The notes: a model not told the origin generated them from the letters alone. DNA of 64,000 nucleotides from Escherichia coli (GCF_003334765.1 NZ_QOWT01000005.1); one strand, 5' to 3'. Numbered from the stretch's first letter, positions 7,440 through 8,203 are shown. Made by a program: numbers and translations.

Positions 7440-7816
7440 GAAGCTGACCAGACAGTCGCCGCTTCGTCGTCGTCCTCTTCGGGGGAGACGGGCGGAGGGG
7501 AGGAAAGTCCGGGCTCCATAGGGCAGGGTGCCAGGTAACGCCTGGGGGGGAAACCCACGACCAGTGCAACAGAGAGCAAACCGCCGATGGCCCGCGCAAG
7601 CGGGATCAGGTAAGGGTGAAAGGGTGCGGTAAGAGCGCACCGCGCGGCTGGTAACAGTCCGTGGCACGGTAAACTCCACCCGGAGCAAGGCCAAATAGGG
7701 GTTCATAAGGTACGGCCCGTACTGAACCCGGGTAGGCTGCTTGAGCCAGTGAGCGATTGCTGGCCTAGATGAATGACTGTCCACGACAGAACCCGGCTTA
7801 TCGGTCAGTTTCACCT
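7440..7816 (+). ncRNA. rnpB: RNase P RNA (M1 RNA)
   Basis: Sequence from GAAGCTGACCAGACAGTCGCCGCTTCGTCGTCGTCC... to ...CGGTCAGTTTCACCT matches the 377-nt E. coli M1 RNA as I remember it. Confidence 0.95.
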
Positions 7817-7825
7817 GATTTACGT

Positions 7826-7855
7826 AAAAACCCGCTTCGGCGGGTTTTTGCTTTT
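7826..7855 (+). terminator. Intrinsic terminator of rnpB
   Basis: AAAAACCCGCTTCGGCGGGTTTTTGCTTTT: GC stem, tetraloop, T-run. Confidence 0.85.
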
Positions 7856-7938
7856 GGAGGGGCAGAAAGATGAATGACTGTCCACGACGCTATACCCAAA
7901 AGAAAGCGGCTTATCGGTCAGTTTAACCTGATTTACGT

Positions 7939-7962
7939 AAAAACCCGATACGGCGGGTTTCA
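7939..7962 (+). terminator. Second terminator-like hairpin in the repeated unit
   Basis: AAAAACCCGATACGGCGGGTTT, a near-copy of the first terminator with a shorter T-run. Confidence 0.6.
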
Positions 7963-7983
7963 GATTGTTGAGTGCGCTTTATT

Positions 7984-8087
7984 CATGCCGGATGCGGCGT
8001 GAACGCCTTATCCTGCCTACAAAAGCACGCAAATTCAATATATTGCAGAGATGGCGTAGGCCTGATAAGCGTAGCGCATCAGGCATT
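7984..8087. repeat. REP (repetitive extragenic palindromic) elements
   Basis: GCCGGATGCGGCGTGAACGCCTTATCC and GTAGGCCTGATAAGCGTAGCGCATCAGGC match the REP/PU consensus. Confidence 0.8.
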
Positions 8088-8203
8088 TTTGCGGTTGCCA
8101 TCAGTTTCAAACCCGCGTCAGTGAGTTTTTGCTTTTGGTGCACAGGGTAAGATGAATAAATATCTACGGTATTAATAATAGACTTTGTAAGAAGTTATTA
8201 AGT

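Follow-up and report, generated by a model that had tools for sequence, protein, structure and literature searches.

The window, a stretch of 64,000 nucleotides, holds an Escherichia coli-type garK-rnpB-yhaC region, and its positions 7400–8260 are 99.3% identical to the best E. coli match, which is annotated with the same three genes. The gene for the class A RNA of RNase P (M1 RNA) was located by a full-length match to the Rfam model, and the span given to rnpB by PGAP in near-identical E. coli loci equals 7440–7816. A promoter-like site, found by a consensus scan, ends 8 nt upstream of the RNA start as placed by Rfam (7440). The GC content is 54–56% upstream and 29–37% at 8000–11000, and the array of repeat units that separates rnpB from the convergent gene yhaC sits at this sharp boundary. 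The features are as follows.

7404–7432, + strand: rnpB promoter-like site, GTGACA-17 nt-TATACT (consensus scan, 10/12 matches)
7440–7816, + strand: rnpB, RNase P RNA (M1 RNA), class A (Rfam RF00010, 318.6 bits)
7767–7867, + strand: unit 0, genic, 101 bp; last 50 nt of rnpB, precursor trailer, terminator T1, and spacer GGAGGGGCAGAAAG
7824–7857, + strand: terminator T1; 12-bp hairpin with UUCG loop (7824–7851) and U-rich run UUUUUGCUUUU (7845–7855)
7868–7975, + strand: unit 1, the first non-genic unit, a member of the 113-bp family (alignment, family D1; profile match)
7889–7900, + strand: 12-bp insert GCTATACCCAAA, between CCACGAC and AGAA in the alignment, diagnostic of all non-genic units
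7941–7960, + strand: decayed terminator hairpin of unit 1 (-9.1 kcal/mol, z -1.07)
7987–8084: BIME; REP (7987–8020), spacer with the IHF-like site AATTCAATATATTG (8029–8050), and inverted REP (8056–8084)
8091–8149, + strand: partial degenerate unit; P1-strand remnant with an internal deletion, broken hairpin, intact TTTTTGCTTTTGG, and spacer (family D2, 87%)
8150–8169, + strand: terminal stub AGATGAATAAATATCTACGG, the diverged start of another unit (family D3, 71%)
8204–9391, - strand: yhaC, AT-rich and convergent, given as context outside the repeat (395-aa ORF; YhaC family protein in matching loci)

Repeat units and terminators behind rnpB

The first-pass annotation of this DNA had proposed that the last ~50 nt of M1 RNA and its terminator are duplicated head-to-tail. 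Alignment placed this duplication far above chance, with a local score of 110 between unit 0 and unit 1 (7868–c. 7960) against 14.0 ± 2.1, and at most 21, for shuffled sequences. The proposed unit starts, 7768 and 7869, were borne out by the 21-mer AGATGAATGACTGTCCACGAC, which is found exactly at 7767–7787 and again at 7868–7888. A single 12-bp gap interrupts the alignment of the two units. Past the corresponding insert they lie in 113-bp register with 82% identity over 83 nt (family D1), and a profile of the downstream units recognized unit 1 with 90.1 bits in nhmmer. Unit 1 is composed of a 21-nt exact copy of rnpB 7767–7787, the 12-bp insert, a copy of the 3' strand of P1, the trailer, and a decayed hairpin, and its tail diverges from ~7961. 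Its first 61 nt are identical to those of unit 1 of K-12 save one base.

Two parts of the initial description require qualification. The period of ~101 bp fits the gene-proximal unit only, whereas the period of the family is 113 bp owing to the 12-bp insert in unit 1. A copy of the mature 3' end does exist in unit 1, but it is unfaithful: besides the insert, the gapped local alignment shows AGAAAGCGG where rnpB has AGAACCCGG. As the insert and this CC-to-AG change are present in every E. coli non-genic unit, the 3' strand of P4 of RNase P RNA is destroyed in all of them.

A degenerate third copy beyond two REP elements had also been suggested, and it was recovered with a score of 42 against unit 0 (shuffles 14.0 ± 2.1, maximum 23), mapping slightly wider than first given, to 8091–8169 instead of 8107–8170. 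The 3' part of the partial unit is the terminal flank common to all alleles, including the single-copy ones. Tandem Repeats Finder with a minimum score of 30 did not report the array, as expected for two copies split by an indel, and pairwise alignment with seed extension was needed to detect it. A search of the units against Rfam matched no family beyond chance-level hits; rnk_pseudo and rsmX over 7760–7857 (E = 0.15, far below gathering) were rejected as chance matches driven by the terminator.

T1 has the properties of an intrinsic terminator. Its hairpin on the + strand folds at -19.4 kcal/mol (z -4.7), which none of 200 shuffles equaled, and it runs into UUUUUGCUUUU, the first 7 nt of which fall within the 3' arm of the stem. 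The same terminator has been used and measured as a strong natural terminator, like rrnB T1 (PMC3643576). The other two hairpins of the window lack one or the other part of such a signal on the + strand: that of unit 1 is followed by UUUCAGAUUG in place of a U-tract, and that of the partial unit (~8109–8138) keeps the U-tract on a stem interrupted by mismatches. The idea that each unit carries a terminator thus fails for the + strand of the window allele, where T1 alone is intact according to folding and U-tract checks. Serial terminators are likewise absent from this allele, and identical ones in series are confined to longer alleles, such as K-12 with T1 to T3. On the - strand, the hairpins of T1 (-13.9 kcal/mol, z -4.3) and unit 1 (-11.5 kcal/mol, z -2.2) are both followed by UUUUUAC, and they could act on transcripts arriving from yhaC. 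Both the rnpB locus and rrnB, with its T1-T2, place serial hairpin-U-tract terminators after a very highly transcribed stable-RNA gene. The rrn terminators, however, are not head-to-tail duplicates that include the end of the gene, nor do they vary in copy number, and the window has one intact terminator.

Between unit 1 and the partial unit lie two inverted REP palindromes and a spacer, which together make up a BIME (REP pair). The spacer element AATTCAATATATTG resembles the IHF consensus. With two inverted REPs flanking an IHF-like site, 7987–8084 has an architecture like that of a BIME or RIP element; here, it is inserted inside the array, outside the repeat unit, and it is missing from O157-type and single-copy alleles. 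Two sRNA families of Rfam that are built on REP elements, naRNA4 (31.4 bits) and ES036 (32.7 bits), match the BIME with scores below their gathering thresholds. The junction of unit tail, BIME, and partial unit was found in 3160 of 5426 E. coli genomes. The exact allele of the window is rare, as an identity of at least 99% over the BIME junction was reached by only 3 of the 5426 complete genomes.

Copy number of the array across E. coli

Nine loci from complete E. coli genomes were compared side by side with the window. They are listed here by the number of extra 113-bp units.

0 extra units, no BIME: L006 and L007
1 extra unit, no BIME: L008 (O157:H7) and L005
1 extra unit, BIME and partial unit: L002 and the window
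2 extra units, BIME: L003 and L004 (BL21 derivative)
3 extra units, BIME: L001 (K-12-like laboratory strain)
4 extra units, BIME: L129 (O104:H4)

All nine loci have the same end of rnpB and the same terminal flank, TTTTTGCTTTTGG-TGCACAGGGTA-AGATGAATAAATATC. The comparison of copy number across strains, which the first reading of the sequence had called for, thus revealed a difference of 0–4 extra units in the inspected loci, between constant rnpB sequence and the TGCACAGGGTAAGATGAATAAATATC flank, and the array is a VNTR or minisatellite. In the two single-copy strains, the stub AGATGAATAAATATCTACGG follows directly after T1, and one of them (L007) lacks both yhaC and yhaB. The starts of the units are spaced by 101, 113, and 113 bp in the K-12-like strain and by 101, 113, 113, and 113 bp in O104:H4. 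The K-12-like locus consists of the genic unit, three 113-bp units, the BIME, and the partial unit, and its intact units carry a terminator identical to T1. The sole full non-genic unit of the window is the array-edge unit adjoining the BIME, which has the decayed terminator tail TTTCAGATTGTTGAGTGCG in all BIME-bearing alleles.

On a larger scale, a query with the 113-bp unit matched 13,014 places in 5,399 genomes, with 1–9 matches per genome and a median of 2. A query with the single-copy junction found 758 of 5426 genomes (~14%) at least 99% identical, a count taken from identity bands only because coverage did not separate the alleles. Like MLVA-type minisatellites such as ms32 (101 bp), the array is an intergenic series of tandem ~100-bp units with strain-variable copy number. 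An identity with ms32 or another published MLVA locus was discarded, as none of seven primer pairs (PMC8215070) matches the window at up to 3 mismatches.

The ladder of alleles, the identical flanks, and the exact 113-bp steps point to unequal exchange or slippage between units as the probable source of this variation.

A repeat of this kind is apparently not new. Reed and Altman reportedly described in 1983 a 113-bp sequence in ~3.5 copies in the 3' flank of the K-12 M1 RNA gene, and they are said to have noted its homology to the 3' end of M1, its terminators, and its small ORFs. The array of the window is probably this repeat, as the anatomy of the K-12-like locus matches it. The window shares with it the garK-rnpB-yhaC locus, the sequence of the unit, the start of the unit within the last ~50 nt of rnpB, and the 113-bp period. 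In its canonical form, the unit has a small ORF and a rho-independent terminator besides the part homologous to the 3' end of M1. Against the ~3.5 copies reported for K-12, the window has one full non-genic unit and a partial one, and its non-genic terminators are decayed; this shortfall is an allelic difference. The repeat is real but reportedly known since 1983. Literature searches on rnpB together with yhaC, and on precursor M1 RNA, returned nothing.

Related units in other Enterobacterales

The 21-mer that opens each unit is a conserved part of RNase P RNA. A scan for it in one genome per species returned at least 120 loci over Gamma- and Betaproteobacteria, and the Enterobacterales among the matches listed make up ~30 loci, a sample without Salmonella and Klebsiella. 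Among the matches listed, six more species have tandem non-genic units 3' of a single complete rnpB, as checked with Rfam.

Citrobacter sp. R56: 1 non-genic unit
'Enterobacter' sp. Bisph1: 3 non-genic units, the last partial
'Enterobacter' sp. Ag1: 4 non-genic units
Pantoea sp. IMH: 2 non-genic units
Pantoea sp. Mb-10: 4 non-genic units
Erwinia persicina: 4 non-genic units

The periods of the arrays in these species range from ~105 to 130 bp, and the unit stub alone is found in E. albertii, a Brenneria, and one MAG. In all six species, the non-genic units have an insert of 11–14 nt and of related sequence at the position of the E. coli insert; examples from other genera are GCTATACCCAAAA, GCTATACTCAAAA, GCTCTTCATGAAAA, ACTCTCTATGACAG, and GCTTTCTATGAAA. 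The non-genic units also have G where every genuine rnpB compared has C (GAAAGCGG or GAACGCGG versus GAACCCGG), and neither the insert nor the C-to-G change was present in any genuine rnpB compared. Duplications that arose independently would not have these derived characters in common, and the units therefore appear to descend from one ancestral duplicate. Judged from the sequences, the non-genic type of unit would be old, having persisted in several lineages and been lost in others.

The 70 nt from GGCTTA onward are 0.99–1.00 identical between unit 0 and unit 1 within one genome (E. coli, Pantoea sp. IMH, and Erwinia persicina), and the same 70 nt are 0.52–0.89 identical between genera, mostly below 0.8. 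The ancestral duplicate would have survived since before the families split while being homogenized against each species' own gene. The two types of unit may stay distinct because the 5' third of a non-genic unit could be homogenized to the gene only at the cost of its insert, and because selection on the ribozyme keeps the genic unit as it is. We found no discussion of the cross-genus homology of the non-genic units in the literature searched.

By eye, the insert is noticeably more alike between genera in the alignment than the spacers between the units are. Two ideas on the unit-specific sequences were rejected on inspection. A derivation of the insert from the -10/+1 region of rnpB (CTCTATACT...GAAGC) involves spacings that are inconsistent between genera, and a collinear pairing of the unit-specific GCGGC with the 5' region of M1 has the segments in the wrong order. 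This 5' region is identical up to position 24 in 9 of the 10 sequences compared, Brenneria differing at three positions.

Transcription, products, and maintenance of the array

According to work of the Altman and Lee laboratories, the primary rnpB transcript reportedly ends at T1, and a trailer of ~36 nt is said to be removed by RNase E cleavage beside the mature end, followed by exonucleolytic trimming. A role of RNase E in the maturation of M1 RNA is documented (PMC11251521). In Term-seq data of K-12, the allele of which differs from that of the window, the sole curated 3' end in the region under three conditions is 3270216(-), the mature end of rnpB (PMC7815308), and there is accordingly no sign of stable RNAs ending at the downstream units of K-12. 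The same data contain a Rho-dependent region at 3269111(-), antisense to yhaC, where coverage without bicyclomycin is 2111 upstream and 34 downstream (PMC7815308). In K-12, some transcription of the rnpB strand thus runs ~1.1 kb past the gene, through all the units.

Such read-through bears on the possibility that the cassette has been selected as a fail-safe, bidirectional terminator or insulator between the very strongly transcribed rnpB and the convergent, AT-rich yhaC, its units being kept since each adds a terminator and an entry site for RNase E. In K-12, the rnpB strand is still detectably transcribed over the 800 nt that precede 3269111, which makes read-through a real problem. Hairpins of the T1 type lie between an A-tract and a U-tract and form good folds on either strand, intact copies number three to four in K-12 and O104:H4, several genera have retained arrays, and the array lies where the GC content drops sharply from 56% to 29–36%. 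We nevertheless regard selection for insulation as improbable. Some E. coli do without any extra unit, as in the 758 of 5426 genomes at least 99% identical to the single-copy junction, and in the window the terminators after T1, the second and the third, are decayed on the + strand. In addition, a need for a terminator alone leaves the 50 nt of gene-like sequence that accompany it unexplained.

In another reading, the units would be, or encode, a functional RNA, for instance a decoy with the 3' strands of P2 and P1 that binds RNase E or the C5 protein, or an RNA that modulates how read-through precursors fold and are processed at the 3' end. In line with such a role, several genera have in common the C-to-G change and the insert specific to the units, and folding of the alignment predicts a small hairpin (AAGCGGCU/GGUCaGUUU), which has a compensatory change at one pair in three sequences. 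RNAalifold, run on 16 units from 7 species, however, recovered the terminator, which shows compensatory changes, and besides it a single local hairpin of 8 bp that covaries little; essentially all covariation falls within the terminator, the covariation term being only -0.84 kcal/mol, and no conserved covarying structure emerged elsewhere. Taken whole, the units are no more stably folded than shuffled sequences (z +0.12 for the window and -1.65 for K-12), the Rfam matches are at chance level only, and gene conversion from the real rnpB can account for the gene-like blocks. K-12 Term-seq also has no curated 3' ends at the unit terminators (PMC7815308). A functional RNA is, in our judgment, very improbable.

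A coding role, in which small basic peptides would start at the ATG of AGATGAAT, is hardly credible. In Escherichia this ATG has a GGAGG before it, and in the window GGAGGGG stands at 7856–7862, 8 nt before the ATG at 7871. The units of K-12 give 38-aa ORFs in which the stop overlaps the next start as ATGA, and Reed and Altman reportedly noted open reading frames in the repeat in 1983. Yet the ORF spans 18 aa in the window and 33–50 aa in other E. coli units, is 9 aa long in both 'Enterobacter' species and Pantoea sp. IMH, and has no ATG start in the units of Pantoea sp. Mb-10 and Erwinia persicina, so that the homologous units lack an ORF of common start, stop, and length. Outside Escherichia the units are without a Shine-Dalgarno sequence, nine RefSeq E. 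coli loci have no CDS annotated in the units, and the first codons are simply the conserved J18/2-P2 sequence of rnpB. A promoter consensus scan found no site within the units, and its negatives carry no weight because the same simple promoter/terminator scanner missed even T1. Taken together, the unconserved ORFs, folding no better than that of shuffles, the lack of a promoter-like site, and the lack of any annotation favor the conclusion that the repeat most likely makes no product of its own. Back-up termination, possibly bidirectional, is the only likely activity of intact units.

Equally untenable is the notion that the units are scars of integrative elements that target the rnpB 3' end in the manner of tRNA or tmRNA att-site duplications, with which the array has in common a duplicated stable-RNA 3' end at the edge of a variable region (AT-rich and strain-variable, with yhaC and yhaB missing in L007) and a 21-bp block of perfect identity resembling an att core: the units abut head to tail with no element between them and no integrase nearby (garK, rnpB, yhaC, and yhaB only), displaced genuine 3' ends should keep the intact P4 strand that every unit lacks, and exact 113-bp periodicity with a copy-number ladder is typical of unequal exchange.

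We consider it probable that the window carries a short allele of the 113-bp tandem repeat reportedly described in the 3' flank of E. coli rnpB, and that the following account is correct as a whole. An old duplication would have taken in the last 50 nt of rnpB, the trailer of the precursor, and the intrinsic terminator behind it. Later, the non-genic type of copy would have gained the 12-bp insert and the CC-to-AG change, leaving it unable to supply the P4 strand of the ribozyme. Since then, unequal homologous recombination among the units, or slippage during replication, may have lengthened and shortened the array. The same exchanges would keep the units, over their 3' two-thirds, almost identical in sequence to the end of rnpB itself, so that this one process may also explain their concerted evolution. 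In the window, the resulting array would comprise the genic unit, one full edge unit with its decayed terminator, a BIME inserted behind it, and an old partial terminal unit.

This short allele would also differ in what happens to transcripts that escape T1. Most rnpB transcripts would stop at T1, be cut by RNase E, and be trimmed to the mature end at 7816, a step supported by the literature. The few polymerases that pass T1 would meet no second good terminator in the window allele and presumably continue across the BIME until they transcribe yhaC in antisense, a region to which Rho-dependent termination has been mapped in K-12. In longer alleles, the intact copies would act as back-up terminators, possibly in both directions.

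The account of a short tandem-repeat allele meets a difficulty in the position and sequence of the insert and in the C-to-G change, which are shared by six other Enterobacterales species and would imply a very long persistence, to judge from the alignments. Such persistence is not obviously predicted by a purely neutral minisatellite. It might be taken to mean that the cassette of pseudo-3'-end and terminator is an ancient feature that selection has maintained at the rnpB loci of Enterobacterales instead of an oddity of E. coli, although we hold this to be rather unlikely.

The allele of the window is in itself of small importance, being a shorter, partly decayed form of a repeat from the early RNase P literature. 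The number of rnpB terminators ranges from one to at least four, and in the strain of the window T1 alone looks functional; annotation or engineering that uses 'rnpB T1, T2 ...' should therefore not presume the downstream terminators in every strain. The array might also serve as a clean natural example of how the end of a functional gene and its copies without function evolve in concert. More work could be worthwhile only on the conservation of the non-genic unit type across genera. If the persistence of this unit type reflects selection, the cassette would have a function in the biogenesis of RNase P RNA or in transcriptional insulation, one left unstudied after the first description of the repeat.

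The BIME and the allele of the window

In the complete E. coli collection, the top genome over positions 7400-8260 was only 99.3% identical, and only 3 genomes reached at least 99% identity across the BIME junction; the variant of unit 1 carried by the window (TTTAACC..., CCCGATACGG) is therefore a rare allele. The junction between unit and BIME as such was present in 3160 of the 5426 complete E. coli genomes, and was absent from O157-type and single-copy alleles.

REP-associated features and other RNA elements
7987-8084: BIME made up of two REPs in inverted orientation around an IHF-like spacer; it is an insertion that follows the array's edge unit
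46324-46505, + strand: two adjacent naRNA4 (REP-cluster) matches, scoring above the Rfam gathering threshold
62135-62207, - strand: tRNA gene
L129:1205-1913: 5-unit allele of E. coli O104:H4 FDAARGOS_348

The naRNA4 matches and the tRNA gene have no relation to the rnpB repeat. In the 5-unit allele, the first REP of the BIME and its spacer are directly followed by an annotated IS110-family IS621 transposase gene, and the sequence is divergent within the second REP. REP sequences are a target of IS621.

Sequence and transcription behind the array

Just behind the array, the GC content falls sharply from about 56% to 29-37% over yhaC and yhaB (window 8000-11000). In strain GN06758, which has no extra unit, pseudogene fragments occupy the place of yhaC and yhaB, and tdcR comes after rnpB. 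The array thus lies at the border of an AT-rich segment that varies between strains. In K-12, published DirectRNA-seq with and without bicyclomycin places a region of Rho-dependent termination at 3269111(-), on the strand of rnpB and within antisense yhaC (PMC7815308, supplementary file 2). Because this position, corresponding approximately to window 8700-8900 (+), lies inside antisense yhaC, transcription in K-12 runs on across the entire repeat region.

Terminators and the origin of the units

Two types of terminator circulate among the units, a short stem capped by a UUCG loop and a longer hairpin (CCCGCCAGCGTAAACCGGCGGG, -19.6 kcal/mol); the loci concerned are L004:2031-2080 (a BL21 derivative), unit 1 of L005 (one extra unit without BIME), and the genic unit of L018. 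The long type is the own T1 of rnpB in E. albertii, whereas in BL21-type E. coli it is located in a downstream unit, which suggests that terminators have been exchanged between positions.

Among the matches listed, tandem units of a pseudo-3' end and a terminator were also found downstream of rnpB in Citrobacter, two 'Enterobacter' species, two Pantoea species, and Erwinia persicina.

rnpB loci with downstream units
Arrays of tandem units: L019, L026, L039, L060, L065, L090
Only the stub of a unit: L018, L081, L118

The units of these genera have the insert at the same position as the E. coli units and with related sequence. They also share with them the C-to-G change, which was found in no genuine rnpB among the matches listed. 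These common features imply that the non-genic units of E. coli and the other genera have one ancient origin.
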